A stretch of DNA of 64,000 bases. Source: an uncultured Clostridia bacterium. GTDB lineage: Bacteria > Bacillota > Clostridia > Christensenellales > Borkfalkiaceae. The DNA lies in the NCBI GenBank assembly GCA_947627955.1, contig CANQXZ010000001.1, positions 120,477 through 184,476 of the forward strand, read 5' to 3'. Shown here in pieces: positions 37,442 to 64,000 of the stretch (position 1 is the first letter of the stretch; each line of letters starts with the position of its first letter). A program made the translations under genes and the position numbers. Below the pieces are notes generated by a model. The model did no database searches. It saw only the letters and a list, made by a program, of their open reading frames with translations, and was not told the DNA's origin.

Positions 37442-37677
37442 ATACAATTATATGAGGAACCGCCCGTCAATATGAACCGAGCATTTTGTCTATTCCTATT
37501 CCGTATCCGCGCGTAGGGTCGTTTATGAATACGTGAGTAAATGTCAATAAGTTATAGGCGATTTTTTAAGTTTTTTTTGTCGAGCGGCATAGAAATCTGT
37601 CACATTTTCAGCTCCAGACTACAAACTTGATGACATTTACCTCGTTGCCGTAATTGAAAGAGGTAAAATTACGATAT

Positions 37678-38001
37678 TCAATAACTGTTTGCAATCAGCA
37701 ATCTTTTTCCGTTGCTTCTTAAATACTCTATATACTCAAATAATTGTTTAATGTTTCGTGTCATCCTATCAGAACTGGATGTAATAACTGCTTCCCACTT
37801 TGCGGTCTTACTGTCCTCCATCAATTGTGCCAATGTTATACGTTTGGTGGTTTTTCCCAATTCCTCTTTCTCAATGTAGGTCTTAACTACTGTCAAACCA
37901 TTTTCTTTTGCAAATTTTTGACATATGAAGATTTGTTTATCAATGGCTTCCTGTAATTGATAGTCCCCCCTTACTCGGATATATAATGCTGCTTCTTTCA
38001 T
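37678..38001 (-). CDS. stand-alone resolvase-catalytic-domain-like protein lacking the serine nucleophile
   Basis: 107 aa behind a perfect AGGAGG RBS. AALYIRVRGDYQ aligns with the AxYxRxSxxxQ motif of the two neighbours (YLRLSREDGD / YLRLSKEDGD), but the Ser position is Arg-Gly. SSSDRMTRN aligns with the DLSRFGRN motif. No DNA-binding domain is present. Confidence 0.6.
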   Translation of the reverse strand: MKEAALYIRVRGDYQLQEAIDKQIFICQKFAKENGLTVVKTYIEKEELGKTTKRITLAQLMEDSKTAKWEAVITSSSDRMTRNIKQLFEYIEYLRSNGKRLLIANSY

Positions 38002-43513: not shown

Positions 43514-43540
43514 GTAAAAAAGAGCACAATCCAGTGCTCT
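43514..43540 (-). terminator. rho-independent terminator ending the cargo operon
   Basis: AGAGCAC/GTGCTCT stem abutting the stop codon at 43541-43543, followed by TTTTTTAC on the minus strand. Confidence 0.75.
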
Positions 43541-43735
43541 TCATTCTTCATCCTTTGCTTTGCTGATAAGCTTTATGGTAACGCTACCATCTTGTATATT
43601 TAATAAATATCGCCTATGACATTTATCACATTTAATTACACCATCTACGATCACGGCTGCATGTATAAGCAATTTATCACATTTTGGGCAGTGTATATAA
43701 CTCTTGTCATCTGAAGGTGCAATAATGTGTTCCAA
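43541..43735 (-). CDS. cysteine-rich KTR-type zinc-ribbon protein (Tn916 orf6-like)
   Basis: 64 aa with CPKCDK...CDKCHRRY (two CxxC pairs), like the small KTR proteins next to tet(M) in Tn916-family elements. Confidence 0.65.
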   Translation of the reverse strand: MEHIIAPSDDKSYIHCPKCDKLLIHAAVIVDGVIKCDKCHRRYLLNIQDGSVTIKLISKAKDEE

Positions 43736-43778: not shown

Positions 43779-44699
43779 CTATTTTGATAATATAAACCTC
43801 ATTAGCATTGCTATTAATATAAAAATGAAGTTAGTAATAACCATAATGGGGAATAATATAACTAGCAGTAAAAATATAACACAACTGAAGATTATCGCTA
43901 CAGTCATTAACCCAATAATAGATAAATATAAAAAATACCTTTGAATTGAAAATAAGCGATATCCTCCAGCCATGCCAATATTGCTTTTCCCTAATGCAAA
44001 GTTCTCTGCCCATATACCATTAATGTATGACACAATCGTGGTCAAGTATCCTTTCATAGCCAGTGGGAATTCTGATAGTTTGGCAGTCATAGAAAAATCA
44101 AAGCTACAAAAAATGTTTGGTTTGCCAGAAAACGCCACTTTAAGATTCCTTATTGTTGCAACGATACCATAAAGAAGACAAACCAACAACATAAGCACAC
44201 AAAATAGCAGAATTAATAAAAAAGCCGTCCCAAAAAATGCAAGTAGTAACCCACCTTGAATAATAATGATAGCAAAAATAAGTGCTGTACCAAAGATAAG
44301 AGTTGCTGGTGCAACCATAAGCCACATCCATTTGCGGAACGATAATATTCGATAGCTGTGCGACTTAGTTACTGCATTACGTGCAATAACGAAGTTATCC
44401 AAAAATGCGTTTCTTGATGTCTCTTTATACAATGTAAACCATTTTAATAGAATTGTTGCAAAAACATTCCTTGCTGTTACTGTACCCAACCCTTTTGCTG
44501 CCGAAACAAAACTTTTAATATAGATGTAAATCGAATATGCTAATCCGACTGCAGCACCTATACTTAAAAAAATGATAAGACCTATATATCCGACATAAAA
44601 GAAAATTACAGCAAAAAAAGCGGCAAAAATAAGGAAAATAAGAAAACTTCCCAACACATCCACCATCGTTACTGCATACCCAGGTCTTCTCCAAATCAT
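43779..44699 (-). CDS. polytopic membrane protein, unknown function
   Basis: 306 aa with about 7 hydrophobic helices and no recognisable motif. Confidence 0.6.
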   Translation of the reverse strand: MIWRRPGYAVTMVDVLGSFLIFLIFAAFFAVIFFYVGYIGLIIFLSIGAAVGLAYSIYIYIKSFVSAAKGLGTVTARNVFATILLKWFTLYKETSRNAFLDNFVIARNAVTKSHSYRILSFRKWMWLMVAPATLIFGTALIFAIIIIQGGLLLAFFGTAFLLILLFCVLMLLVCLLYGIVATIRNLKVAFSGKPNIFCSFDFSMTAKLSEFPLAMKGYLTTIVSYINGIWAENFALGKSNIGMAGGYRLFSIQRYFLYLSIIGLMTVAIIFSCVIFLLLVILFPIMVITNFIFILIAMLMRFILSK

Positions 44700-44722
44700 A
44701 AGTTAACCTACCTTTGTGAAAA

Positions 44723-45067
44723 CTAAAATAGTGCTTTTAAAATGCATTGATATTCGTCCACATCCACATTAATTAACGACTTTTTGCCATCCGTAAATTC
44801 AATTGAAATCATATATCGTTTGACTGTAGAGCTCGAAGAAACAGACGCAAACATCCCAACTGCCCCAAAAACAGCACCGCCGACCGCTCCTTTTAAAAGA
44901 GTCTTCCAAAATGGATGTGTTTCAATATCGTTAATGATTTCGTAATTAGCAATGTTTGTTTTATTGACTGCAATTCTTTTTAGGTGATGCATAAAAAAGA
45001 GTTTGTTTCTATATGCTATTACGTCATAATTTACATAGTCACCCGCTATAACTTTACTTTTGCTCAT
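44723..45067 (-). CDS. small protein with a glycine-zipper TM segment, unknown function
   Basis: 114 aa with a central GAVGGAVFGAVGMFASV segment. Confidence 0.5.
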   Translation of the reverse strand: MSKSKVIAGDYVNYDVIAYRNKLFFMHHLKRIAVNKTNIANYEIINDIETHPFWKTLLKGAVGGAVFGAVGMFASVSSSSTVKRYMISIEFTDGKKSLINVDVDEYQCILKALF

Positions 45068-47586: not shown

Positions 47587-49032
47587 CTAATACTTTTTCT
47601 TTACACTAATAATATAATTAATCACACCGTAAGCAATAAGGGATAGAACAATAGCCCCTAAAATAATCCATACCCAAATCATTGTATCGAAAATTTCTAA
47701 ACTGCTAGAAAAATATGGTGTAGGATACCCATGTGATGTATCTTTCCAATTTGCAAAAGATTTTGGTAAATCAGTGCTAGTTACATTCTGCTCAGGCAAG
47801 GTATATATCCCTTCTACTTCGTTTGAATTATTGCCAATAATATTGCAACTGCTAGGCACTATATAGCAGTCGCTGAACTGAGCGGAATCAACAAAAGCAG
47901 TTAACTCCCCAACATACCTTAAACATTTGCCGTTTGATATTCCGGAGCATTCAGCATATACTAAACATGAATTAATAGTTGAATTTTTTACTCTACCAAC
48001 CAAGCCTCCTATTACTTGAAATGGTGTTCCACAGAGAGATGTTTTGGTTAAATCTGATTGTACTCTGCTTCCATAGGTGACACAGTTCTCAATTATTCCA
48101 TCCTCAGAATATCCAACAATACCACCACACAATGTTCCAAATGCACTTTTACCTGATACCCCATCCCCAAAAACGCTAAATCTATTTTTTAAGTAAATAG
48201 ATTGATCTATTATCGAATTATCAATTCCATTGTAATATTCACAACCAGAAATTAAACCTCCTTTATTTAGCCCAACAAGTCCACCAATATAAATATTGCT
48301 AACTGACCTATTACCTCCCATTACTATATCTTCTCGGATACCGGCATTCCATGCTTGATAACAATTTATAATGCTACAATTTAAAATCTCATTATAGTTA
48401 TAGCCAGCAATTATTCCAAAAGCGTTCGTTGAGCTGTTGGAAAAATTGAATTCACAAGATTCAAATCGCAAATTACAAATTTTTCCGTAATTGGAGCCAA
48501 CCAAGCCAAAACCCGAACTAGAATCTTTAACATTTGAAATTTTAAGATTTTTTATTGTATGTCCGTTGCCATCAAAAGTCCCATAATAATTCTGCAATTG
48601 TCCTAACCACGTGGGATTTTGCCCTTCAAAATCAATGTCGCTTTCTAAACAGTAATCTAATTTATCAGCATACGGTAAATTGCAAATTACATTAAATTCT
48701 TGAGAAGACTTAATATAAATTGTCCGCTTAGGAATTGTAGTTAAGCATATTATCATCATTGCAATAGCTATTAGAGTCAAAACTATAGTTGAGATAAACA
48801 TTATGATTTCTACTATGCCTTCACGGTCACTTGTATCCGGGAAAAAAGTAGCGGATAAATAAAATATAACCATACCAATAATCAATACAACACTTACTGG
48901 TATGAATATCCCTAAGATTCCACCAAAATGAATGCCTCCAAAAATTAGCGCAGGGCGAACCAAAGCAATTGCCATAACTATTATCATAGCAATAGGTGGA
49001 ATTAAAAATAGTTCTTTAATAGTCTTGATCAT
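47587..49032 (-). CDS. membrane protein with GLUG-repeat ectodomain
   Basis: 481 aa with about 3 N-terminal TM helices and one C-terminal TM helix. Five GLUG-like repeats: GLVGSNYGKICN, GIIAGYNYNEILNC, GGLVGLNKGGLISGC, GGIVGYSEDGIIENC and GGLVGRVKNSTINSC. Confidence 0.7.
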   Translation of the reverse strand: MIKTIKELFLIPPIAMIIVMAIALVRPALIFGGIHFGGILGIFIPVSVVLIIGMVIFYLSATFFPDTSDREGIVEIIMFISTIVLTLIAIAMMIICLTTIPKRTIYIKSSQEFNVICNLPYADKLDYCLESDIDFEGQNPTWLGQLQNYYGTFDGNGHTIKNLKISNVKDSSSGFGLVGSNYGKICNLRFESCEFNFSNSSTNAFGIIAGYNYNEILNCSIINCYQAWNAGIREDIVMGGNRSVSNIYIGGLVGLNKGGLISGCEYYNGIDNSIIDQSIYLKNRFSVFGDGVSGKSAFGTLCGGIVGYSEDGIIENCVTYGSRVQSDLTKTSLCGTPFQVIGGLVGRVKNSTINSCLVYAECSGISNGKCLRYVGELTAFVDSAQFSDCYIVPSSCNIIGNNSNEVEGIYTLPEQNVTSTDLPKSFANWKDTSHGYPTPYFSSSLEIFDTMIWVWIILGAIVLSLIAYGVINYIISVKKKY

Positions 49033-50550: not shown

Positions 50551-50862
50551 TTATATGTACATTAAAACTAGTCTGTAAATTTCGTAAGCAACAGGGGCAA
50601 TAATTGCCAAAACAACTAACCCTATCACAATAAATAAGGCTACTTTCATATAAATATTACTTACGCTATGATTAATTCCAACCACACTATTTTTAATGGC
50701 GGAAACTAATCCGACAAAAATGCTTATAAACAAACCTATTACAAGTGATCCAACAAAAACCACTACTACGGTTGCAATTAGTATTGCTAATATTTGCAAC
50801 CCTAAGTACAGGAAGAATAATCCTCCTAGACAGCTACCTACTCCATCATCATCATCTGACAT
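50551..50862 (-). CDS. small three-TM membrane protein with acidic N-terminus
   Basis: 103 aa, MSDDDDG followed by three hydrophobic helices. Its start lies 5 nt downstream of the stop of the 894-aa gene. Confidence 0.5.
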   Translation of the reverse strand: MSDDDDGVGSCLGGLFFLYLGLQILAILIATVVVVFVGSLVIGLFISIFVGLVSAIKNSVVGINHSVSNIYMKVALFIVIGLVVLAIIAPVAYEIYRLVLMYI

Positions 50863-50867
50863 AATTT

Positions 50868-53552
50868 TTACTCCTTATTATTTTTATTAAATATTTTTTC
50901 AAAGAAACTCATATGTTCCTTTAAATATTTATCAATGAAATTTTTTACTTTAGGCAAATCCGGTTCTGATATTAGTTCACATATCTTTTTAAAAAGCTTC
51001 TTATAATCTCCTCTACTTAAAGTATCTACATATTTTGAAACAAAAAATATAAGATTACTTGCTAATCTATCGTTCACATTAAAGGCATACGCAAAAATAT
51101 CAGCTAAAATTTCGTAATATTCTTTGTTGCTTAGCTTTTCAAGTGGATTTAATATTGCCGCTATTGAACCATTAAGATATGATATCGGCCTTTCAAAAGT
51201 AGCTCTTAATAGTGTGTTGCTCTTGTATCCTTTTTCCTTATATTCGCAATACAGTTGCAATATATCAATAAAATAATTTGAAATGAACTGTTCCAATTGA
51301 AAATCATTAAGCCAAGAATACAGAGTATTCTGTTTTATACAATTGGTTAACAGATCTTCACCCAATTTTCCTCTTACAAGTAATATTGTCCGTAAGATAG
51401 AATAATTGTCTGGAATCTTAAAATGTGCATCACGCAACCTTACGTTTAACTCATTTATGCTACGTAAATAAGTAGGAGCATAATTAATTAGCTCTTCCAT
51501 TGATAATGAAAAAATCTCCTGATTTAAGTAATCTAAAATCAAAATCATATCAGCAAAAGAATTCTCAAAATCTTTTAATTGATCGTAGAATTTTATACTT
51601 TCGGCTATTTTATCTTTTCCTTTAAGATTACCAAGATATAATTTTATTTTTTGTATATATATGCCACTATCATATCCAGTTCGATAATATTTATTAAAGT
51701 AGCTATCTAATGAGCGGAAATTAACCTTTGTTGCGGTTTTAAAAACATAAGCTTCTTTCCGGAATAAGAAATCTCTAAAATCATTCTTTTCTTTATTAAG
51801 GTTCTCTACACTTTCAAATAAGCTCTTATATATGTCTGAATACTTTATATATAAATCCATGAAATTTGCATTTCGCATATTATTGCTGATAAATGTAGTT
51901 ATCAAGTGTGTCTTTTCTTGTTCATTTTCTAGTGAACATATAACGCTGAAAGCAAATTCCATCGACTTTACATCTGAAATTTGGCATTTTACAAAATCGC
52001 CTAAAGCGTTCATAATTAACCAATTTAATGCTTTGTCGCCTAACTGTTTAGCGCAATTCAAATATAATTTGAATTCTTCCAAGGATCTATGAGTAATGGA
52101 TTTTCGAATTATTTTATCCATTAACATATATGCTTTATTGTTTTCCGCTTCACTCAAATTTAATGCAATCGAATTTACCAATGCATCAAAGACATAATAT
52201 AGTTCATTTGTGCCGTTTCGAGCCTCAATGTATCTTTCCCATTCAGAATTGTTTACAACCATTAAGGAATAATCATTCCAAGGGAACGGAGCCTTATTCT
52301 TAATTTCAGCTAAGCTTGATTGTGGAGTGCCCGAATATATATTTACGCCAAAAAGCGTCAACTCGGAAAAATAACGATTCATTATTGAATCTTTTATATA
52401 TCGGTCGGAAAAATCGTAAGTAAATTTTATGAGCGAGAGAATTTCATTCCCTTTACCCCACTTCCCAGAAATGATTACTTCATTATAAAGATTAAAAGCA
52501 ATTTCTTTTTCATTAATATAATGATATTTCAAAGCAATTTCTAAAGCTGATGAATATTCCGACGCACCTGTGAACCACCTGAAGTTTTTCTGATTTAAAT
52601 AATAAACCGCCAATGCTATATCAATATGGCATTGTGTCATTGCTATTATATTGTTTACCGACTCTATTTTCTTTAAAATGGCAAATAAAGTCGATGACTC
52701 AAGTGACTGCATAACATCGTTTATATATCTACCTAATACTAATTTTGAACATATTTTCTTTTCAAAATTAAAAACAATGTTTCCTGCCGCAAGTTCATCT
52801 TGGTAGTTAAATGTTGAACCAATCATGCTTGCAAATATATTTCGAATTTTAATGGGCGGCATGCCTGTAGTTGTTAGGGTATAATCCAGCTGAGTAGAAT
52901 ACTGCGTACAAAAAGTTGCATCATTAAAATAACTTGCAGGCAAAAGTGTACCTATAATGGCATAGAGTAGTCTGATATTTTCTTCCGTGTCATTAAAAGT
53001 AATCCTATCTAATGAACCATGTGTATTTATCACCGCTTGCAATAAAGATGCTATATCTTGTTTATATCCACCAAAAGCAAGTTTTTTAATTGCTTCTTCA
53101 CTTGCAATACTTTGTGTATTTAATTCAATAGGTGGAAGCGATGCGGGAGCAGGATCATCGTGCCATTCTTTATATGAGAGACTTGATTTAAATGCTTTAT
53201 GTTCAAAAATGCAATAAGGATTAAACCCTTGTAATTCATCAAATATAAAAGCGTGAATGATGAAGTTTCCGTTACGGCTATCTTGATCGCTATAAACTTT
53301 GCCAATATAGCTTGATTGCGCGACACAACGTCTCCCAGACGAAAGAATAAAATAGGCATACTTCTTTGGGAAAAAGGCCTTAATTTCCTCATCTGTTGGT
53401 TCATATGGCGCATTTGGAGCCTTTTTATAGGACATAAGTTTGATAATTTCATCACATTCTGATTTTGTGACATTGTCAGATTTTGCCCATACACTAAATG
53501 CTCCGGATTTATCTTTTCCACAAGCCGTATAAATCATTTGATAGGCTAACAT
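50868..53552 (-). CDS. large all-helical protein, N-terminus resembling GTPase-associated protein 1 (GAP1)
   Basis: 894 aa behind an AAGGAG RBS. MLAYQMIYTACGKDKSGAFSVWAKS follows the QxxYTSxxxGxxGxxGFQxxAxS-type opening I associate with GAP1-N domains. This comes from memory of a motif, not a search. It lies directly downstream of a Zn-ribbon GTPase. Confidence 0.45.
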   Translation of the reverse strand: MLAYQMIYTACGKDKSGAFSVWAKSDNVTKSECDEIIKLMSYKKAPNAPYEPTDEEIKAFFPKKYAYFILSSGRRCVAQSSYIGKVYSDQDSRNGNFIIHAFIFDELQGFNPYCIFEHKAFKSSLSYKEWHDDPAPASLPPIELNTQSIASEEAIKKLAFGGYKQDIASLLQAVINTHGSLDRITFNDTEENIRLLYAIIGTLLPASYFNDATFCTQYSTQLDYTLTTTGMPPIKIRNIFASMIGSTFNYQDELAAGNIVFNFEKKICSKLVLGRYINDVMQSLESSTLFAILKKIESVNNIIAMTQCHIDIALAVYYLNQKNFRWFTGASEYSSALEIALKYHYINEKEIAFNLYNEVIISGKWGKGNEILSLIKFTYDFSDRYIKDSIMNRYFSELTLFGVNIYSGTPQSSLAEIKNKAPFPWNDYSLMVVNNSEWERYIEARNGTNELYYVFDALVNSIALNLSEAENNKAYMLMDKIIRKSITHRSLEEFKLYLNCAKQLGDKALNWLIMNALGDFVKCQISDVKSMEFAFSVICSLENEQEKTHLITTFISNNMRNANFMDLYIKYSDIYKSLFESVENLNKEKNDFRDFLFRKEAYVFKTATKVNFRSLDSYFNKYYRTGYDSGIYIQKIKLYLGNLKGKDKIAESIKFYDQLKDFENSFADMILILDYLNQEIFSLSMEELINYAPTYLRSINELNVRLRDAHFKIPDNYSILRTILLVRGKLGEDLLTNCIKQNTLYSWLNDFQLEQFISNYFIDILQLYCEYKEKGYKSNTLLRATFERPISYLNGSIAAILNPLEKLSNKEYYEILADIFAYAFNVNDRLASNLIFFVSKYVDTLSRGDYKKLFKKICELISEPDLPKVKNFIDKYLKEHMSFFEKIFNKNNKE

Positions 53553-53600
53553 ATCATCATACTCCTTAAATTAAGATTTAGATTAATTTTTATAATTAGT

Positions 53601-54716
53601 TTATTTTTTAACTGTCTGAATATAGTGATTTTCCGCTAATAACCATAAAAGCGGATCCAGAACGCGCCTAGGATTAATCTTGTTACCTGATAGCTTTGTC
53701 CCATTAGGAACACCTCCTAGTGCCGTCAAGCCAAAGAACGCATATTTTTCAAACTGCTTCATTTGCTGCACAAGCTCGGCATCCAGCCAGTTTTCCAAAA
53801 GATCTTGCATTTCAATATTGACGCTCTCGAAATCTGTTTCAACAAATACCCCACGCGCAAGATGTTCTGATTCCGAATGTAAACAACTATCTTCCTTTAA
53901 AAGATTGTACTGTTCCAACGCATCTATTTTTGTGAATGCCAAAGCAAGAGGAATCTTAATGGTTCCTCGTATATTCTTTACATCTCTGATATTTTGGACT
54001 ATTCGACTCAGAACTTCAACAACATCTGTATTTTGTGGAGGAAGCGACATTTTACCCTGAAGCTTCTCTCTAATTGTTGATACTTGCAAAGGATCAAGCA
54101 ACAAAATGATACCATCAGCATTAGGAATATAACGATTATTGACTAGCATATCATCGGTGGAGTCAAGATTTTCACCTGCAGTATCATAAAAGGACAATGC
54201 TGCCACTTTTTTAATATGATTATTTTTGTCCATAAAGCGCAAAGGAAAAATCAACGGAGGGACGTCATCTTGACTTGTGGCGTCAACTACAGAACCGTGT
54301 TTAAAAAGCGGCTCATAATAGTGGTCATTATAATACTGCCGAGACTCCTCACTACTAGCTAAACTTAAGGTACAATTAAAACTAGACGTCATCTTTCGCT
54401 TAATTTCGTTGATAAGTACGCCTATGTAATTGGACTTGCCGGAAGCCTTCGCACCAAGTAGCGCAACAGACAAGCTCTCTTCATTAAGAAAATCAGATGG
54501 AATTTCTTTATTAACAACACTGCAAAATACTGACTTTCGAGCATCTTTGCATTTCATGCATTTTTGCTTATCTTTATTTGGAATCCAGCCAGCTGCATCT
54601 TTGACTACGGTTGAAATACACTTATCGGGTTTCCCGGGAACATTATATGAGCATTTCAAACCACTGGAAATAATGTCATGCTTACCGTAACAATATGGAC
54701 ACGTAAATTTTTTCAT
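53601..54716 (-). CDS. soluble zinc-ribbon P-loop GTPase (TRAFAC-like motif order)
   Basis: 371 aa with CPYC...C...C...CMKC ribbons. G1 is GAKASGKS (54455-54432), G3 YDTAGE, G4 TKID and G5 LTALGG. Confidence 0.8.
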   Translation of the reverse strand: MKKFTCPYCYGKHDIISSGLKCSYNVPGKPDKCISTVVKDAAGWIPNKDKQKCMKCKDARKSVFCSVVNKEIPSDFLNEESLSVALLGAKASGKSNYIGVLINEIKRKMTSSFNCTLSLASSEESRQYYNDHYYEPLFKHGSVVDATSQDDVPPLIFPLRFMDKNNHIKKVAALSFYDTAGENLDSTDDMLVNNRYIPNADGIILLLDPLQVSTIREKLQGKMSLPPQNTDVVEVLSRIVQNIRDVKNIRGTIKIPLALAFTKIDALEQYNLLKEDSCLHSESEHLARGVFVETDFESVNIEMQDLLENWLDAELVQQMKQFEKYAFFGLTALGGVPNGTKLSGNKINPRRVLDPLLWLLAENHYIQTVKK

Positions 54717-54738: not shown

Positions 54739-55479
54739 TTATCGATTAACTGATTGGACCCATTGACGATCTCGCTTATTTTCTTCATCTTGTGCCTGAA
54801 TTTCTTCTTCAGTAGCACCTCTTTCTCTCATACTTTCGATTTTTTTATCTCCCTGATATTTAATCAAGTCAATCTCATCTTGCTTCACTTGCTTTGTATA
54901 TTTCTCTGAAGCAATTCTATCTTCATCACTGATACTTTTGCCTTTGGCTTCACGTTCCGCTAATTTTTCATTGATTTTATTTCGCATATCAATGTCATGC
55001 GATTGCAAATCAACTTTTTCTTGATGAACAGTATCTCGAAATTCAATCCCTTCTTCCTTCATCTGATAGCTTAGCTGCTCTTGTGATGCAATATTTTTTT
55101 CATATTGCGCTCTTAATGAGTCAAATGTCTTTGAATCACCACGTTCAACAGCTTTTGCCATATCTCTAGAAATAGCCTCATTTTTTGCATCAAGCTGCTC
55201 ATAAGCCTGCTTTTTTTGTTCGCCGAAAAATTGAAGCCTTTGCTGATTATTCATATCCCACATCTTACTTTTTTGTTCATCAATCGCCATTTCAGCTTTT
55301 TCGTAATCGCGGGAATTGGGGTCTATTTTTTTTAGTTCCTCTTCCTGTGCCTCAATATTTTTTTTATAATCTTGAGTGGCCGCATATGCTTCCGGAGCAT
55401 TACGGCTAGCCATGGCAGAGTTCCAACGTCTCTCATATATTTCGGAATATTTCTGATATTCTTTCATCTTATTTGTCAT
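54739..55479 (-). CDS. highly charged coiled-coil protein, unknown function
   Basis: 246 aa, rich in K, E, Q and D throughout. No TM helices or enzymatic motifs. Confidence 0.6.
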   Translation of the reverse strand: MTNKMKEYQKYSEIYERRWNSAMASRNAPEAYAATQDYKKNIEAQEEELKKIDPNSRDYEKAEMAIDEQKSKMWDMNNQQRLQFFGEQKKQAYEQLDAKNEAISRDMAKAVERGDSKTFDSLRAQYEKNIASQEQLSYQMKEEGIEFRDTVHQEKVDLQSHDIDMRNKINEKLAEREAKGKSISDEDRIASEKYTKQVKQDEIDLIKYQGDKKIESMRERGATEEEIQAQDEENKRDRQWVQSVNR

Positions 55480-55491
55480 ACAACAATCTCC

Positions 55492-56691
55492 TTAAAATAC
55501 ATTTAATCTAGTATGCTCGTTCGTCTTCTTTGAATAATAAATTGCCTGATTTTCCGGAAGTTGCGCAAATACATCGGGTAAATATACACGTTCCTTCTCA
55601 GTTGTAATCGATGTACTACTTTGCTTACTAGCACCACCTCTTCCATTTAAGCGATCCCAAAATGTTGGATTACTTACTCCTTTTGTTACAGTTTCTTTTT
55701 GTCTTTCATATGTACCAAAAAATTCTGAACAAAATTCCTTATTCTTGTTAGAGTTCTGTTTAAAGAAAAAATAACTGTCGGCATACTCGATCCACTCATT
55801 AGACTGTTCAATTAAGTTACTCAAATCTTGTATAGTATATAAAACATTGCAACTCTTTCCACCCTTTATAAGCTTCTGTATCCCAGAAGCAATTAATATA
55901 TCATTAGGTGTTCCATCAACAAGCACATTAACACTAGACACACTTGACGTGGCAACATTAAAACGCCCTATTGCATCTATAATAGCTGACATAATAAGAA
56001 TGGACTCCTCATGTTTTGCAGAAAAGTCTAAGCTTATTTCTATAATTGGTTTGCTCTTAAAAATCTGTTCTAAGCTCTTGTTTCCTGATAATACATAGCC
56101 AGAAACATTATTTGCAAAATCATAGAAATATGCCTCAAGTTCTCGAATTTCAGCCCTAATGCTATTTAAGAACCGATCATTTCTAGCCTGCTCAACACCA
56201 GTACTATATTTCATATTAAGATCTTCAATTTCTTCAATAGGAAAATCCAACAAATTATTTATTTTAACTGTTTTACCAGCTTTTTTAGCAAGATTTCTAA
56301 GAAGTGATATATAATTCTGAAAGCTCATTCTTTTGCTTTTATCAACTTCGTTATACATATCAAAAAGCTTGATAATATAAGCATTAATATCTGTATCAGT
56401 CATACCTGAGAAAATATCAATTTGCTCAGTTGTACTATTATCTGTGCAATCAACATCAAATATTAATCTGCTTGATGTTGTAATTGAAGGATATGATGAA
56501 AGCCCTGCTACTTGATCACGAAATATAATTACACCATATCCTCTGTTTATAGAGTCAATAGCATAATTTCTCATAATAACTTCTGCCCCTTGTTTTGAAG
56601 CGCCAGAAATTAATACATTTCCTAATGATGCATCAAGTGAAATTGTTCGACTACTTTTTGTAGCACCTCTAATAAAGTTTAATAATCCCAT
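55492..56691 (-). CDS. TraD/VirD4-like (FtsK-HerA superfamily) paralog with degenerate Walker motifs
   Basis: 399 aa, alignable by eye with the upstream ATPase. VLISGASKQGAE replaces LIGGIGSGKT and VLVDGTPND replaces FVCDEFKLLP. The C-terminal YTIQDLSNLIEQ region is conserved. Confidence 0.55.
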   Translation of the reverse strand: MGLLNFIRGATKSSRTISLDASLGNVLISGASKQGAEVIMRNYAIDSINRGYGVIIFRDQVAGLSSYPSITTSSRLIFDVDCTDNSTTEQIDIFSGMTDTDINAYIIKLFDMYNEVDKSKRMSFQNYISLLRNLAKKAGKTVKINNLLDFPIEEIEDLNMKYSTGVEQARNDRFLNSIRAEIRELEAYFYDFANNVSGYVLSGNKSLEQIFKSKPIIEISLDFSAKHEESILIMSAIIDAIGRFNVATSSVSSVNVLVDGTPNDILIASGIQKLIKGGKSCNVLYTIQDLSNLIEQSNEWIEYADSYFFFKQNSNKNKEFCSEFFGTYERQKETVTKGVSNPTFWDRLNGRGGASKQSSTSITTEKERVYLPDVFAQLPENQAIYYSKKTNEHTRLNVF

Positions 56692-56709
56692 GCTTCCACC
56701 GTTTTGTAC

Positions 56710-58053
56710 TTATTTACGTGATTTAAATTCGCTAAAACCAAATTTAAATGGTTCAGCACTATTAATTGAAATTATAGCTTCACCAAGTTTTAGGTTGGCA
56801 ACATCCCAGTCTTCGACAACATGTGCTGTCGCAATAGTTTCTTGTACTGTTGTTGACTTATATGTAGTACATTTTCGATTTTCGCCTGACCGCTCTTTAA
56901 TGTAATTGCGAGTCGAATAATCACTAACCTTAAAAGCAAATAAATTTAGAAATCCAGAGAAAATGTTTTTTGCCATGTTTTCTCCATAAATTTCAATTAT
57001 TTGATCAACATTCTGGACACCTATCATGAATTTAATGCCTAAACTTCTACCAAAATTAACAGCATCATCAATATGTTGCAAGTTGGGTAGAAGTTTAAAT
57101 TCATCACATACGAAAAACACATTGCCATCGCTTTTTGAGCGGCATAAGGCTTCTTTTATTGCCAAATCAAATAATAAACTGTAAATAGGTGTCAACATAC
57201 CGCCAATGCCAATGTCATATTCAATAAATATTTTTTTACCACCCTTATTCCGTACTAATTCACGAATTGAAAGAGTCCCTCTTTTTGCAAAATTTCCCAC
57301 AAAAACAGACCTAACCACTTGCTGAAGTTCTGCTAAAACGCCAAGTGCTTGCCCCATTGCATCCAATGGTATATAGCTCTTCATTGCAGCGAAATTATTG
57401 TACATACTAAGAATACTATGATACCACTGAATATTCTCTTTCTTCATAGCTTCAGAAATAGTATAATTATCGCTTTGTACTGTTCCTCTCCCTTTCATCA
57501 ATACAAAATGATATAGTATAGCGGACATTATGTCTTTAGCTGCTTGAGGGAAAAAAGCATTATCGCCTGCTTTTTTCAATTTGTCGGCAAATAATGAATT
57601 TGATATCTCGATTACATCTTCTTTTAAACCAACAGAGCTATCCAGCTCATTAATGATGTTCCAATAATCAGTTCCAGTGCTACCACATGCAGAGGAATCG
57701 TTGCTAATCACTACGTCGCCTGGTCTATAGAACTCTTTATAAAAGTCTCCTTTAGTATCGAAAATAATCATTACATCACTAGATGACAATTGCGGTACTA
57801 TATTTTGAAGTATTTGATTGAATGTATTAGTTTTACCTGAGCCTATCCCTCCAATAAGCATAAGATGTTGACTTAAAAGTTTTTCAGTCAAAACAAATCT
57901 ATCATTAGCACCATTTCCATTCTTTCCATTAAAAACGATATTGATTGGATGTGGGCATTGCGGTGATGACTGTTGCATAGTTTGCGCCGCTAACGGGACA
58001 TTCAAATTAAGTTCCTGTCCTTCACATACTCGCACTGTCGTCTGGGCCATCAT
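56710..58053 (-). CDS. TraD/VirD4 (type IV coupling protein)-like P-loop ATPase without TM anchor
   Basis: 447 aa with Walker A GGIGSGKT (57852-57829), IIFDTKGDFYKEFY, Walker B FFVCDEF and GVQNVDQIIEIYGENMAKNI. Confidence 0.75.
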   Translation of the reverse strand: MMAQTTVRVCEGQELNLNVPLAAQTMQQSSPQCPHPINIVFNGKNGNGANDRFVLTEKLLSQHLMLIGGIGSGKTNTFNQILQNIVPQLSSSDVMIIFDTKGDFYKEFYRPGDVVISNDSSACGSTGTDYWNIINELDSSVGLKEDVIEISNSLFADKLKKAGDNAFFPQAAKDIMSAILYHFVLMKGRGTVQSDNYTISEAMKKENIQWYHSILSMYNNFAAMKSYIPLDAMGQALGVLAELQQVVRSVFVGNFAKRGTLSIRELVRNKGGKKIFIEYDIGIGGMLTPIYSLLFDLAIKEALCRSKSDGNVFFVCDEFKLLPNLQHIDDAVNFGRSLGIKFMIGVQNVDQIIEIYGENMAKNIFSGFLNLFAFKVSDYSTRNYIKERSGENRKCTTYKSTTVQETIATAHVVEDWDVANLKLGEAIISINSAEPFKFGFSEFKSRK

Positions 58054-58829
58054 GATCTTTTGATTCCCCCTGAATTGTTTTGTCCACTTAGTTCATTAGA
58101 TTTTGACACACCATTCAATCCAATATCCTGCATATTGACATTGTTTCTATTTTGATTCTGTAATTTAGCATAATCTTCAGAAACTTGTTTATCAATGTCT
58201 TTTGATGGCGAAGCAGTATAATGAAATCTTTCATTAGCCTGTTTATCGTAAAGTTCTATGTATTTTACTTCTTCCTCAGAATTTACTATACCTTTGGCAC
58301 CAACATATACTGATGTACACTCCATCACATTGCCTGTGTTGGGATTTTTAATTCCATTAAATTTTTCATAAAGTTCTGGACGATCCATTTTCTTTACTTC
58401 TTTAATTTCTGTATAGAACTCTCTTTTCAACTTTCTATCGTCCATATACATACTTCCGGGAATTCGGGTTCTTTCAGTTCCTGCCCTCATATTGTAATTT
58501 TCTCTTATAACGTTTGCACGCTTTTCCCGCAAGTCATCATGCGCTTGCGATAAAATATCATCATAAGATGTTCCCTTATATGAACAAGCATAATCTCCAT
58601 GCTTGTCTTCAAAATCCATCCCTACAATCTGTCTGTTCTTGTTGTCATCATAAATCCATACTCTCGTAGCCGTGAGTACACCATCCTTGCCTGGACGAGG
58701 ATCTCTAATTGTTGTATCAATATGACCATTAGCACTCTCTATGATATTTTCATGTGAAGAACCAATGCCATTATAACTATAACAACCCATTTCGGAATCG
58801 GATAATGGTGATTCATAATAATAAGCCAT
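58050..58829 (-). CDS. hypothetical protein, translationally coupled to the TraD-like ATPase
   Basis: 259 aa with no recognisable motif. Its stop overlaps the downstream ATG (ATGA at 58050-58053). Confidence 0.6.
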   Translation of the reverse strand: MAYYYESPLSDSEMGCYSYNGIGSSHENIIESANGHIDTTIRDPRPGKDGVLTATRVWIYDDNKNRQIVGMDFEDKHGDYACSYKGTSYDDILSQAHDDLREKRANVIRENYNMRAGTERTRIPGSMYMDDRKLKREFYTEIKEVKKMDRPELYEKFNGIKNPNTGNVMECTSVYVGAKGIVNSEEEVKYIELYDKQANERFHYTASPSKDIDKQVSEDYAKLQNQNRNNVNMQDIGLNGVSKSNELSGQNNSGGIKRS

Positions 58830-62005: not shown

Positions 62006-64000
62006 TTACTTTAAAGAATTGCCAACGACTTCTGTCGCAATAGATGATGCCACTTCTTTAAATGTGGCAGAAAGTTGACTCAAATCAACTTTCTTCCCTT
62101 TCCCACTGGAAATGCGACTGAGAAATGCCTCATCTGCATCACCAATGCCAATACCATAAATAATAATCCCGTCAGCTTTAGCTCGATCTGCAGCGGTTTC
62201 CTCTGTTGATTGATCATTCCAATATCCATCAGTAAGAACGACAATGACTCTTGGACAATCGCGTGTAAATTTCTTGTAATTATTGTTTATTGGCGTTTCT
62301 GCATTGCAATATCCAACATCATTAACATCAACGTCATCAATTGCATGATATAAGCGTCTCTCATCATTCTCCCATTTGCATTTATATTGTGAACGATCGG
62401 CAAAACTGATAACAGAAATGAAGACTCTGTTTAAGTCAAACTCCTTCACAAAATCCTTTGCTGCGCGTCGCGCTTCTCTAATTCTATTACCACTCATACT
62501 GCCAGAAGTATCTATCATTAGCATAATCTCAATTCTGCTTTTACGTTTTGCCTCCTCCTCTGCTTCTTTCTTTTCGCGCTCTAAACGTGCTATAATCTCG
62601 CTCATAGTTTCATTAGTATTCTCACGAGTAGATGATAAAACTATGCCATTATCCAAGCAAGCATTAACTTCAACAACACCATTTGAGTTATATAAAAAAT
62701 TAACTTTAATCTTGCTCTTATTGTCTTTTGGCATGCCAGTGATTGAATAAGCACCAATAATATCACACTCGTAAGGATCGCGAGCTTCTCCTTGCAAAAC
62801 ATACACTTGCAACTTCTCGCCTGAAAAAGTATATTCCCTACTAAACGGTTCATTGACCTTACTATTTTTTCTTATAATAATACTATTAATGTAGCTTTTT
62901 TCATCGCTTGCAAGCGCAAGCATGCCGAGACTATGTGCAGTAATATCTTGAATATCGCTATTGTGAATTGTAAGCGTAATCGGAGCCGTGGGCATAGAGG
63001 TACCGCTCGACTTGGCTGAATTGGCGGATGCAGAGCTTGCAACGGTTAACGTAATGGAATTACTCACGCAGAGTTCTGCTTGCATAGCTGCGCCTGTTGC
63101 TACTATCGTATCGACATTAATATCTTTTGTAATGGGCGGACGACCATATTCTTTGATTATCATGTCCTTGACTTGAGGCATTCTTGTTGAACCACCTACC
63201 AAAACGACTTCATCAATATTATTCCACCCAAATGGACGATTCTGGGCTTCACTAATTTCATCAAAGCAACTTTTTATCAACAGAATTGTTTCATATAGAA
63301 GACTATAGGTTTGATCATTAAAATCCTCTCGGGTAACAGTATATTTACCAAGATACCCATCGCATTGGATCGTAATAATAGTTGAAGCGACTGAGGAAAG
63401 TAACTTCTTGGCTTCCTCACACTTCACCTGTAATTCTTTAAGATCTTCTTCGTGGTCATCAATACTGACACCAAATTCAGAATAAAATTTCTCTTTAACT
63501 TGATTGATAAGCGTTTCGTCCCAGTCCTTTCCGCCCAATTGATGATTTCCGTTTGTTGCAAGAACATCAATTCGTGTTCCATTTACATTAGCAACTGTTA
63601 CATCAAATGTGCCACCACCGAGATCGTAGACAAGAACATTCTTTTCCTTACCACCTGTCAAGCCATATGCGATGATTGCCGAAGTAGGTTCATTGATTAT
63701 CTTTAAGACTTTTAACCCAGCCTTCTGACCGGCCCGAATTGTTGCTTCGCGTTGTTTATCATTAAAATAGGCAGGCACTGTAATAACCGCCCCATCAATA
63801 TCAATGCTATTGGTACTCTTTATGTCTTGAATAAGGTGTGCAAGATAAAGTCCCGACAACTCCTCAGCAGAATACTCCTGCCCATTTATGAAAGCACTCC
63901 AATTAGAATCGCCCATCATACTTTTATAAAAGGCAGCTGTATTAACATTGCCTGATTTTTGTTCATTCTTTGCATCTTCACCGACCATAATGCTTCCATT
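62006..64000 (-). CDS. Hsp70 (NBD plus SBD-beta) fused to a C-terminal vWA domain; N-terminus beyond the right edge
   Basis: AVITVPAYFNDKQREAT, IINEPTSAIIAYG, VYDLGGGTFDVT (about 63635-63601) and VVLVGGSTRMPQV. An SBD-like QVYVLQGEA segment, then vWA MIDAS MIDTSGSMSG (62518-62489). The reading frame stays open (NGSI) upstream of the listed Met. Confidence 0.9.
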   Translation of the reverse strand, partial: NGSIMVGEDAKNEQKSGNVNTAAFYKSMMGDSNWSAFINGQEYSAEELSGLYLAHLIQDIKSTNSIDIDGAVITVPAYFNDKQREATIRAGQKAGLKVLKIINEPTSAIIAYGLTGGKEKNVLVYDLGGGTFDVTVANVNGTRIDVLATNGNHQLGGKDWDETLINQVKEKFYSEFGVSIDDHEEDLKELQVKCEEAKKLLSSVASTIITIQCDGYLGKYTVTREDFNDQTYSLLYETILLIKSCFDEISEAQNRPFGWNNIDEVVLVGGSTRMPQVKDMIIKEYGRPPITKDINVDTIVATGAAMQAELCVSNSITLTVASSASANSAKSSGTSMPTAPITLTIHNSDIQDITAHSLGMLALASDEKSYINSIIIRKNSKVNEPFSREYTFSGEKLQVYVLQGEARDPYECDIIGAYSITGMPKDNKSKIKVNFLYNSNGVVEVNACLDNGIVLSSTRENTNETMSEIIARLEREKKEAEEEAKRKSRIEIMLMIDTSGSMSGNRIREARRAAKDFVKEFDLNRVFISVISFADRSQYKCKWENDERRLYHAIDDVDVNDVGYCNAETPINNNYKKFTRDCPRVIVVLTDGYWNDQSTEETAADRAKADGIIIYGIGIGDADEAFLSRISSGKGKKVDLSQLSATFKEVASSIATEVVGNSLK

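Follow-up and report, generated by a model that had tools for sequence, protein, structure and literature searches.

A soluble zinc-binding GTPase and GAP1 (GTPase-associated protein 1), encoded by adjacent genes in the 64,000-nucleotide stretch of DNA analysed here (the window), very likely form the constant core of a GAP1-N2-type DO-GTPase conflict system of the HSP70/GrpE theme. In this MAG of a gut Clostridia bacterium, the pair lies within a ~26-kb, 20-gene operon, on a mobile low-GC island acquired by horizontal transfer. DO-GTPase and GAP1 are the constant pair of the GTPase-centric conflict systems, a computational prediction of 2020 (Kaur, Burroughs, Iyer, Aravind, eLife 2020; PMC7159879), and this paper is indeed the source to which the initial annotation had pointed. 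The coordinates given there for the two ORFs, 371 and 894 aa on the minus strand, are exact (Table 1).

Table 1. Features of the GTPase-GAP1 operon, in window positions
Feature	Position	Strand	Evidence
Hsp70-vWA fusion, 712 aa (start 144 nt past window end)	62006..64000	minus	Pfam HSP70 7.4e-99, VWA 2.2e-19 (full protein)
J-like/double Zn-ribbon/FN3-type component, 1035 aa	58870..61977	minus	Pfam DZR 4.5e-05; weak DnaJ 0.19, residues 181-242
Optional module: 259-aa protein, VirD4/TrwB-like ATPase (447 aa), degenerate paralogue (399 aa), coiled-coil protein (246 aa)	54739..58829	minus	Pfam TrwB_AAD_bind 1.7e-39
Soluble Zn-binding DO-GTPase, 371 aa	53601..54716	minus	Pfam DO-GTPase2 9e-09, motifs, no TM segment
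Cys/His-rich Zn module of soluble GTPase (predicted), residues 1-66	54519..54716	minus	Eight invariant ligands, 19 sequences
GTPase domain, residues 82-360: G1 GAKASGKS, G3 DTAGE, G4 TKID, G5 TALG	53637..54473	minus	Pfam, motifs, conservation
GAP1, N2 type, 894 aa	50868..53552	minus	Pfam GAP1-N2, homologues, AF2 model
GAP1-N2 domain, residues 1-135, predicted longin-like ββαβββα, RxGN motif	53148..53552	minus	Pfam, AF2 model
GAP1-M-equivalent α/β domain, residues 151-270, DENN-core-like (predicted)	52743..53102	minus	Secondary structure, homologue Pfam matches, Foldseek
α-Solenoid tail of GAP1, residues 275-890 (predicted)	50883..52730	minus	AF2 model, Foldseek, conservation
Small membrane protein, 103 aa, after GAP1	50551..50862	minus	Hydrophobic segments; 7/20 related loci
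Membrane-anchored Zn-ribbon DO-GTPase 1, 491 aa	49056..50531	minus	Pfam DO-GTPase2 1.7e-14; TM segments, residues 65-128
Variable membrane/surface protein, 481 aa, between membrane GTPases	47587..49032	minus	TM segments at both ends
Membrane-anchored Zn-ribbon DO-GTPase 2, 470 aa	46164..47576	minus	51% identical to GTPase 1; Pfam
Transglutaminase-like protein, 335 aa	45084..46091	minus	Pfam Transglut_core 1.7e-09
114-aa protein and 306-aa multi-TM protein, operon end	43779..45067	minus	Several loci; TM segments
Terminator-like hairpin, only strong one downstream of operon	43519..43542	minus	Hairpin

The soluble DO-GTPase

The sequence identifies the 371-aa protein as a TRAFAC-type, soluble member of the DO-GTPase family; its N-terminus carries a two-zinc module, for which metal binding is predicted. 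It matches Pfam DO-GTPase2 (PF19993) over residues 84-307 with 35.8 bits, above the cut-off of 27. The G motifs listed in the initial annotation are all present in G1-G5 order, with GAKASGKS starting at residue 88, DTAGE at 178, TKID at 262 and TALG at 331. The N-terminal Cys pairs, also pointed out there, are CxxC pairs at residues 6-9 and 53-56, and C6, C9, H13, C22, C33, C53, C56 and C65 are invariant among 19 aligned soluble-GTPase sequences, so that the eight Cys/His ligands (residues 6-65) leave room for two zinc sites. One or two N-terminal zinc ribbons are found in 60% of DO-GTPases, and two in the N2 type (PMC7159879). The DTAGE motif, including the conserved Walker-B glutamate that is a hallmark of DO-GTPases (Kaur et al., eLife 2020; PMC7159879), is invariant in 19 orthologues, and overall identity to 18 orthologues is 48-85%. 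Since the protein has no hydrophobic segment, we consider it to be soluble.

That the protein is instead an ordinary ribosome-assembly or housekeeping GTPase of the Era, Der or YqeH type, standing by chance next to an unrelated helical protein, has a negligible probability. A weak match to MMR_HSR1 (17.3 bits) would speak for it, but this score is below the Pfam cut-off of 21.9, whereas that to DO-GTPase2 is above cut-off, and no NCBIfam model, those for Era, Der and YqeH included, is matched. In addition, its own 97%-complete genome contains no relatives beyond the two other GTPases of the operon, the gene is missing in same-genus genomes, and its adjacency to GAP1 is fixed. An Era/Der/YqeH-type identity, and with it any grouping with the housekeeping GTPases that the initial annotation had wished to see checked, is thus ruled out by profile scores, genome distribution and the fixed neighbour.

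Domain architecture of GAP1

The N-terminus of the 894-aa protein reads MLAYQMIYTACGKDKSGAFSVWAKS and had been recognized by eye as GAP1-type. The Pfam search bears this out, since GAP1-N2 (PF20013) matches residues 5-129 with an E-value of 1.5e-15 and 57.9 bits, against a curated cut-off of 24. The same domain is found in all 65 full-length GAP1 homologues and in 48 of the 48 that were aligned. GAP1-M (PF20014) gave no direct match to the window GAP1, even at E 10, and was recovered at the equivalent residues of full-length homologues (P0060, 1.7e-06; P0064, 2.4e-05; L024, 7.5e-11). No match to a GAP1-C model was obtained for the window GAP1 and the 48 homologues, with a library that may not include this model. 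On its sequence, we assign the protein as a GAP1 with an N2-type head. The head family comprises 1301 clusters at 50% identity; with about 1,300 such clusters, DO-GTPase/GAP1 systems are widespread.

The AF2 models have pLDDT values of 90 (GAP1) and 86. The initial annotation took the remainder of GAP1 to be all-helical, which is correct from about residue 275 onwards and incorrect for residues 151-270, modelled as a compact α/β domain. A confident AlphaFold model showing that GAP1 is not all-helical is new. The following solenoid (residues 275-890) is all-helical in the model, with a pLDDT of about 90 and HEAT/TPR-type Foldseek matches. The model thus suggests a three-part GAP1, in which a longin-like domain and a DENN-core-like α/β domain are followed by a long α-solenoid. 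Conservation is highest in the head and lowest in the solenoid, the fastest-evolving part, and within the RxGN motif of the head, the frequencies among 181 family representatives are 0.99 for R93 and 1.00 for N96.

Judging from the modelled fold, GAP1 probably serves the GTPases as a platform and as their GAP or GEF, and R93 and N96 are candidates for the catalytic residues. It is conceivable, if somewhat unlikely, that GAP1 is a passive scaffold or effector-adaptor that reads the GTPase state, and that the GTPase hydrolyses GTP via its own Walker-B glutamate. The invariant DTAGE glutamate could provide catalysis from within the GTPase, an α-solenoid of scaffolding type makes up two thirds of GAP1, GAP1-like proteins also occur without GTPases, and the DENN fold match described below is marginal. 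However, it is the head and not the scaffold that is most conserved, and near-universal polar residues such as R93 and N96 would rather be expected at a site of catalysis or specific contact.

Pairing of the two genes across loci

An AAGGAG ribosome-binding site precedes the GAP1 start, which lies 48 nt past the GTPase stop. This arrangement was checked in 22 related loci, comprising 20 (L003-L022) and two more distant ones (L033 and L034). In all 22, 2-52 nt separate the end of the DO-GTPase gene from the GAP1 gene downstream of it, and the gene order is shared by the 20 loci as well as by L033 and L034. GTPase and GAP1 are thus always adjacent and in the same order in related loci, and the co-occurrence check proposed in the initial annotation speaks in its favour. 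Soluble and membrane GTPases are reciprocally monophyletic across the loci, and both lineages are present in most loci whose contig extends downstream of GAP1. No PADLOC model matches the GTPase-GAP1 pair.

The GAP1-N2 domain alone is, however, no proof of a GTPase partner. In a sample of 401 genomes of the same class, most GAP1-N2 proteins adjoin genes other than GTPases; the GTPase-free GAP1-N2(+M) genes in Clostridia neighbour ABC exporters or PilB, or lie in between a flavodiiron protein and Lon. Since these proteins have no neighbouring GTPase, their head may dock on other NTPases, or on none.

The operon and its mobile island

The operon opens with GrpE (2.2e-07), Hsp70, an NBD-only Hsp70 and the Hsp70-vWA fusion. 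A full-length homologue (~1020-1040 aa) of the 1035-aa component is present in 17 of the 20 loci, with the upstream sequence of L007, L017 and L022 being too short to judge. Kaur et al. named this type of protein the FNIII component (PMC7159879); the FN3 repeats of the window copy are putative, and faint fn3 matches occur in L033 and L034. Downstream of GAP1, two membrane-anchored GTPases bring the DO-GTPase copies in the operon to three. They match DO-GTPase2 with 54.5 and 41.7 bits and carry DVAGE and DIAGE as Walker B; membrane GTPase 1 is 23% identical to the soluble GTPase. The transglutaminase-like gene is present in 14 of the 20 loci (L003-L022), and several other contigs end before its position. 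The island has a GC content of 34%, compared with about 50% in its surroundings, has recombinases on its flanks, and is missing from three same-genus genomes. Its recombinases number one of the tyrosine and two of the serine type.

These features agree with theme 2 of the GAP1-N2 systems, the HSP70 theme, which comprises Hsp70 and GrpE, an optional NBD-only Hsp70 and an FNIII-repeat protein with a DnaJ domain (PMC7159879). As in those systems, the window DO-GTPase has an N-terminal zinc module and the Walker-B glutamate, a GAP1 with an N2 head follows directly downstream, a further GTPase is membrane-anchored, an FNIII-type protein carries a J-like domain, Hsp70, GrpE and NBD-only Hsp70 are in the operon, and the host is a Firmicutes with the genes in a mobile neighbourhood. 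In contrast to the systems of Kaur et al., which have one or two GTPases, there are three in the window operon; the membrane GTPases are without the C-terminal TM helix of the N2 systems, one Hsp70 is fused to vWA, and GAP1 shows no GAP1-C model match. The VirD4-like ATPase pair, the transglutaminase-like protein and a Tox-HNH-HHH/SUKH-2 pair are extras absent from the main text of PMC7159879 for such systems.

Some of these extras bear on what the system is for. The Tox-HNH-HHH nuclease and its SUKH-2 immunity protein are inserted in the window operon, and L005 carries a GH-E/Imm33 toxin/immunity pair in its operon. Such polymorphic-toxin-type pairs, the VirD4-like coupling ATPase, and the pairing of the membrane GTPases with swappable surface proteins (the GLUG-like 481-aa protein here; PPC-domain proteins instead in L003 and L005) would fit a system in which the GTPase-GAP1 switch serves interbacterial competition or a cell-surface structure, for example the export or display of toxins or surface proteins, rather than intracellular phage or plasmid defence. 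We consider this unlikely, as the toxins are small, stand-alone, without recognizable trafficking domains and confined to few loci, the operon has no secretion channel genes, and Kaur et al. did not observe secretion features in GTPase-centric systems (PMC7159879).

Far less probable still is that the mobile element uses the pair for its own transfer or maintenance, with the VirD4-like coupling ATPase as partner in DNA transfer. The recombinases of the island and the TrwB/VirD4-like ATPase are in line with it, but the operon lacks relaxase, VirB4 and channel genes, and no GAP1 relative was found among 72,556 plasmids or 50,697 phages. Moreover, the VirD4-like module, which lies upstream of the GTPase, is found at least in part in the window and in five of the 20 loci (L004, L005, L012, L016 and L022), whereas the other 15 (within L003-L022), together with L033 and L034, have kept the pair and the Hsp70 module without it. 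These loci largely rule out a role of the pair in DNA transfer.

Predicted resemblance of the GAP1 head to longin-DENN regulators

When the predicted GAP1 structure was searched with Foldseek, as the initial annotation had proposed, the top PDB matches of the head were DENND10 (prob 0.97), FLCN-FNIP2 chains and TagF, all at marginal scores. DENND10 and FLCN-FNIP2 were the best matches for whole GAP1 as well as for the head alone, and nothing exceeded prob 0.2 in a viral structure library. The DENN/longin resemblance is numerically weak (E 8.7e-4, TM 0.32-0.37), and TM-scores against these regulators are 0.2-0.37. Like these eukaryotic longin-DENN regulators (module defined in PMC3521125), GAP1 has a predicted longin-like ββαβββα order followed by an α/β sandwich, and its gene adjoins and is co-inherited with a GTPase gene. 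Unlike them, its partner is a TRAFAC DO-GTPase and not Rab, Arf or Rag, a 600-residue α-solenoid stands in place of d-DENN, and sequence similarity is undetectable; homology and GAP/GEF activity are hypothetical for GAP1. Since the TM values are ≤0.37, no sequence-level link of GAP1 to any solved structure was detected and no d-DENN equivalent was identified in it, we do not file GAP1 under the longin-DENN module.

Our tentative proposal, which we hold to be rather less probable than its negation, is that the longin-DENN module of eukaryotes has true homologues in bacteria, the N2 and M domains, which act as GAP/GEF for the pair of soluble and membrane DO-GTPases and place Arg93 and Asn96 at the nucleotide pocket. 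In 2012, eukaryotes were described as the only organisms known to have DENN-type GTPase regulation. If the proposal is true, this regulation would have a prokaryotic precursor, which resides in mobile conflict systems and, in Clostridia, has been re-used with other NTPases (ABC exporters, pilus motors), and homology rather than convergence would bear on the origin of eukaryotic GTPase regulators. In any case, the predicted longin/DENN-like head offers the first concrete, mutable hypothesis (R93, N96) for GAP1-GTPase communication.

Two bacterial proteins may be compared with GAP1. TagF, a post-translational repressor of type VI secretion (PDB 6iz8), is the third-best fold match of the GAP1 head. 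It differs in being a small single secretion-system protein, and the match scores are low (E 5e-3, TM 0.24-0.30). We know of no GTPase-regulator role or GTPase partner for TagF. In MglA-MglB, similarly to the present pair, a prokaryotic GTPase is co-encoded with a dedicated longin/roadblock-class regulator (PMC3521125). MglB, however, is a small roadblock dimer to which no GAP1 match was found, and MglA is a small Ras-like GTPase without the zinc module of the soluble DO-GTPase.

A possible mode of action

DO-GTPase/GAP1 systems have been predicted to be threshold-setting immune switches (PMC7159879). When the initial annotation called the two genes a regulatory core, the constancy of the pair agreed with that paper, while the regulatory part corresponds to what Kaur et al. 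proposed for it. Since a literature search found no published experiments on any DO-GTPase/GAP1 system, we infer every functional step below, the docking, control and recruitment steps from the predicted fold, and the sensing, assembly, threshold and effector steps from Kaur et al. 2020 and gene content.

The GAP1 head would most likely dock on the soluble GTPase, or on the soluble and membrane GTPase pair, and may control the nucleotide state as GAP or GEF; Arg93 and Asn96 of the RxGN motif are candidates for the residues of catalysis or contact. Recruitment of the remaining components would fall to the fast-evolving solenoid. The FN3 protein and the surface proteins may act as sensors of an invader or an envelope insult, assembly would be controlled by the Hsp70/GrpE/J-like module, and the GTPase-GAP1 switch would set the threshold. 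Effectors would be released last, the candidates being the transglutaminase-like enzyme and the VirD4-like ATPase pair. In the window copy, the Tox-HNH-HHH nuclease is a further candidate, presumably held by the SUKH-2 immunity protein; since this locus is complete, compact and in one operon, with a clear candidate effector and immunity protein, it is usable as a test case.

Identity of the GTPase–GAP1 gene pair

Both ORFs called in the initial annotation, a soluble GTPase and the 894-aa protein downstream of it, are present (see the table). The GTPase carries the four motifs that had been named, in the expected order (GAKASGKS at residue 88, DTAGE at 178, TKID at 262 and TALG at 331), its N-terminal Cys pairs are CxxC motifs at residues 6 and 53, and the opening quoted for the 894-aa protein is exact. 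The gene of the latter starts 48 nt past the GTPase stop, with an AAGGAG ribosome-binding site in front. By Pfam, the 371-aa protein is a DO-GTPase2 (PF19993; 9e-09, 35.8 bits, cut-off 27), and the suspected GAP1-type N-terminus of its partner is matched by GAP1-N2 over residues 5-129 (PF20013; 1.5e-15, 57.9 bits, cut-off 24). The 491-aa and 470-aa proteins of the same operon (membrane GTPases 1 and 2) are DO-GTPase2 proteins too, with N-terminal membrane segments and zinc ribbons.

We have also considered the rival explanation that the GTPase is a housekeeping enzyme grouping with Era, Der or YqeH, which the initial annotation had itself raised. This explanation is refuted on every count, since the GTPase scores below the cut-off of the generic Pfam MMR_HSR1 model, neither it nor GAP1 matches any NCBIfam model, including those for Era, Der and YqeH, and its relatives in the 97%-complete host genome are its two operon paralogues only (next best E 0.006). 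Sequence searches against solved structures gave nothing meaningful for the GTPase, alone or as a 19-sequence profile, and a profile search with the GAP1 head gave nothing meaningful either.

The eLife 2020 source named in the initial annotation is Kaur, Burroughs, Iyer and Aravind (PMC7159879), in which DO-GTPases are a family of TRAFAC GTPases marked by a glutamate in Walker B and often preceded by one or two N-terminal zinc ribbons. The same paper describes a GAP1-N2 theme that includes Hsp70, GrpE, an NBD-only Hsp70 and a DnaJ-fused FNIII protein. The pair is thus a new member of a kind known from computational catalogues. No experimental study of a DO-GTPase/GAP1 pair was found in the literature; a preprint of 2026 describes the DO-GTPase clade as 'recently characterized', and its passages considered here report no experiment.

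Conservation across related loci

GAP1 has 65 full-length homologues of 29-56% identity, all unnamed and all with PF20013. We have read 22 related loci, comprising three metagenome contigs, 17 GTDB genomes (gut Clostridia MAGs from rabbit, goat, deer and buffalo, together with one Treponema and one termite Fibrimonas) and two more distant loci. The co-occurrence that the initial annotation had proposed to check is borne out, since a DO-GTPase gene lies directly upstream of GAP1 in 22/22 loci; where measured (20 loci), the gap is 2-52 nt, and the upstream gene is of the soluble type in 18 and of the membrane type in two. The common order is GrpE, Hsp70, (Hsp70-vWA), Zn-ribbon/FN3 protein, soluble GTPase, GAP1, (small TM protein), one to three membrane GTPases, variable surface proteins and transglutaminase. 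GAP1 relatives were absent from the plasmid and phage collections.

Across the loci, the GTPases fall into a soluble and a membrane group that are reciprocally monophyletic, so that in this branch the 'double GTPase' is an old pair of one soluble and one membrane enzyme. The soluble GTPase is far more conserved (48-85% identity) than GAP1 (23-56%), and within GAP1 the head is conserved and the tail variable.

GAP1-N2 proteins without GTPases

In an even sample of 401 genomes from the same class, the scoring of PF19993 covered 7 of the 30-110 P-loop candidates per genome, a coverage at which absences mean little, and the neighbourhoods of all PF20013 matches were therefore read directly instead. 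PF20013 was found above its cut-off in 11 of the 401 genomes, and only the host genome and one other (G213) have an adjacent DO-GTPase. The latter holds a tubulin-theme system, alike in gene order to theme 1 of PMC7159879. Its locus (G213:C18:14000-30000) reads Tubulin_2 protein (1116 aa), 638-aa protein, membrane DO-GTPase (492 aa), GAP1 (913 aa) and F5/8-type-C surface protein.

In five genomes of one Clostridia family (loci L023, L025, L026, L029 and L030), a heterodimeric ABC exporter pair and CTP synthase are followed directly by the gene of a GAP1-N2 protein of about 710 aa (E about 1e-20), and no GTPase lies nearby. Three further loci (L024:1203-3788, L028:1685-4348 and L031:4519-7278) encode proteins of 860-920 aa with both GAP1-N2 and GAP1-M in what look like housekeeping contexts, two of them between a flavodiiron-like protein and Lon protease and one between PilB (T2SSE) and UvrC. 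In the eleventh genome (G324, locus L027), the contig reaches about 680 nt beyond the start of the GAP1 gene and ends before the upstream neighbour. Since most GAP1-N2 proteins in the sample have no GTPase beside them, a GAP1-N2 match alone is no proof of a GTPase-centric system, and the case for the host system comes from the fixed GTPase-GAP1 adjacency.

Predicted structure of GAP1

An AlphaFold2 model of GAP1, built from a 48-sequence alignment, reached a mean pLDDT of 90. In this model, residues 1-135 form strands 2-10 and 19-24, helix 30-40, a short helix 54-60, strands 64-69, 75-85 and 94-104, and helix 127-132. The predicted segment follows the ββαβββα order, which is that of the longin domain (see also PMC3521125). 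Residues 151-270, at the position where Pfam GAP1-M matches the homologues, are modelled as an α/β sandwich of helices alternating with short strands, and residues 275-890 as an α-solenoid of about 35 helices.

When the whole model was used in Foldseek, HEAT/TPR-type solenoids dominated the matches, with an FLCN-FNIP2 chain at rank 6 and DENND10 at rank 50 (prob 0.98). We have also modelled residues 1-290 separately (pLDDT 86, pTM 0.87), and the top match of this head was DENND10 (8p0v_M; E 8.7e-4, prob 0.97, TM 0.37/0.32), with chains of the FLCN-FNIP2 complex (6ulg_N, 6nzd_H and 8dhb_J) and TagF of Pseudomonas aeruginosa (6iz8) also among the top matches; the viral structure library gave nothing above prob 0.2 for the same query. 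Since the scores are marginal and no sequence link to a solved structure was found, the model points to a marginal fold resemblance between the GAP1 head and longin/DENN proteins, not to DENN/longin membership. The words longin, DENN and roadblock are not used in PMC7159879, and no literature on TagF as DENN-like was found. The profile search of 1.84 billion proteins concerns the best 150 matches only, and a weak tail with any eukaryotic DENN would lie outside this view.

Among 181 family representatives, polar residues are best conserved at R93 (0.99) and N96 (1.00), which belong to an RxGN(F/Y)(I/L)IHA motif where the last longin strand begins. Cys11, together with His100, was considered as a catalytic thiol and rejected, since divergent members have Trp or Gly-Asn in place of the Cys.

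Operon content and the mobile island

The window has a GC content of about 50% over bases 1-38,000 and of about 34% over 38,000-64,000, with a sharp break, and every long ORF of the low-GC part is on the minus strand. The window corresponds to C1 120477-184476 of the host genome (1.65 Mb in 74 contigs), and as the operon starts outside it, the contig was followed to its end.

Genes of the operon and the preceding integrase, numbered in transcription order (positions in the window)
No.	Product	Length (aa)	Position (strand)	Remark
0	Tyrosine integrase	330		Upstream of operon
1	GrpE-like	337
2	Hsp70	549
3	SUKH-2/Syd immunity-type protein	180
4	Tox-HNH-HHH nuclease	207		Pfam 3.5e-43
5	NBD-only Hsp70	369
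6	Hsp70-vWA	712		Start outside window
7	J-like / Zn-ribbon protein	1035
8	Protein without assigned function	259
9	TrwB/VirD4-like ATPase	447	56710-58053 (-)	Pfam 1.7e-39
10	Degenerate paralogue of VirD4-like ATPase	399
11	Coiled-coil protein	246
12	Soluble GTPase	371	53601-54716 (-)
13	GAP1	894	50868-53552 (-)
14	Membrane protein	103
15	Membrane GTPase 1	491
16	Membrane/surface protein	481
17	Membrane GTPase 2	470
18	Transglutaminase-like protein	335
19	Protein without assigned function	114
20	Multi-TM protein	306

The sole strong terminator-like hairpin on the minus strand lies at 43519-43542, past the last cluster gene, and a sigma-70 region-4 protein and two large serine recombinases follow downstream of the operon. 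Beside these recombinases the low-GC island begins (about 37.6-38 kb, window 37500-38000), and it extends beyond the tyrosine integrase to the contig end (C1 192263), its far boundary falling outside the assembly. Three other genomes from the same genus, and one from the same family, do not contain GAP1-N2. From the low GC, the flanking recombinases and this absence in close genomes, it follows that the cluster is the cargo of a recently acquired mobile element. The rival explanation that the genes are part of the transfer machinery of that element is largely refuted, because many loci lack VirD4 and because channel and relaxase genes are absent.

Compared with the systems in the main text of PMC7159879, which is silent on these features, this copy has three GTPases, an Hsp70-vWA fusion, a VirD4-like ATPase pair, a transglutaminase-like protein and a nuclease/immunity insert. 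PADLOC has no model for the GTPase-GAP1 pair; the VirD4-like ATPase, matching mad8 of the MADS defence system (4.2e-17) and HerA models, is the only operon protein with a match of note, and one further match, to CARF, is at chance level.

Proposed working of the system

The domain identities, the fixed gene order, the two GTPase lineages and the mobility of the island are shown by the data above, and the most likely working scheme is inferred. The GAP1 head would bind the GTPase, or the soluble and membrane GTPase pair, and set its nucleotide state, and R93 and N96 would provide an arginine finger or asparagine thumb, or else key contacts; the rival explanation is that GAP1 is a pure scaffold. 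The α-solenoid would recruit the variable partners, and the membrane GTPases would tether the complex to the membrane beside swappable surface proteins. Following Kaur et al. (PMC7159879), the FN3 protein may sense the trigger, the Hsp70/GrpE/J-like module may govern assembly, and the GTPase-GAP1 switch would license the effectors, the candidates being the transglutaminase-like enzyme, the VirD4-like ATPase pair and the HNH nuclease, which SUKH-2 would keep in check. Such a system would serve defence inside the cell; the rival explanation is that it serves competition between bacteria or surface assembly.

Variable modules

The nuclease/immunity pair lies just past the window end (L002:3446-4611, C1 185845-187010), followed by the NBD-only Hsp70, and the three genes form an insert that separates the first Hsp70 from the Hsp70-vWA gene. 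This insert occurs at that place in 0/20 related loci, and is unique to this copy among those. Another toxin/immunity pair, Imm33 with a GH-E HNH-type nuclease, is found in the tail of an otherwise syntenic operon (L005, 16993-17695), which suggests that these systems exchange their nuclease cassettes.

The VirD4-like module is present, whole or in part, in five of the 20 loci. It is missing from the closest relative of the operon (L003, GAP1 55% identical), where a GTPase paralogue of 345 aa that lacks a P-loop separates the soluble GTPase from GAP1 (L003:8928-9965). In one of the two more distant loci, the VirD4-like pair is replaced by a HerA/DUF87-type ATPase of 1048 aa, encoded downstream of the membrane GTPase (L033:11964-15110), and this other member of the FtsK-HerA superfamily may fill its role.
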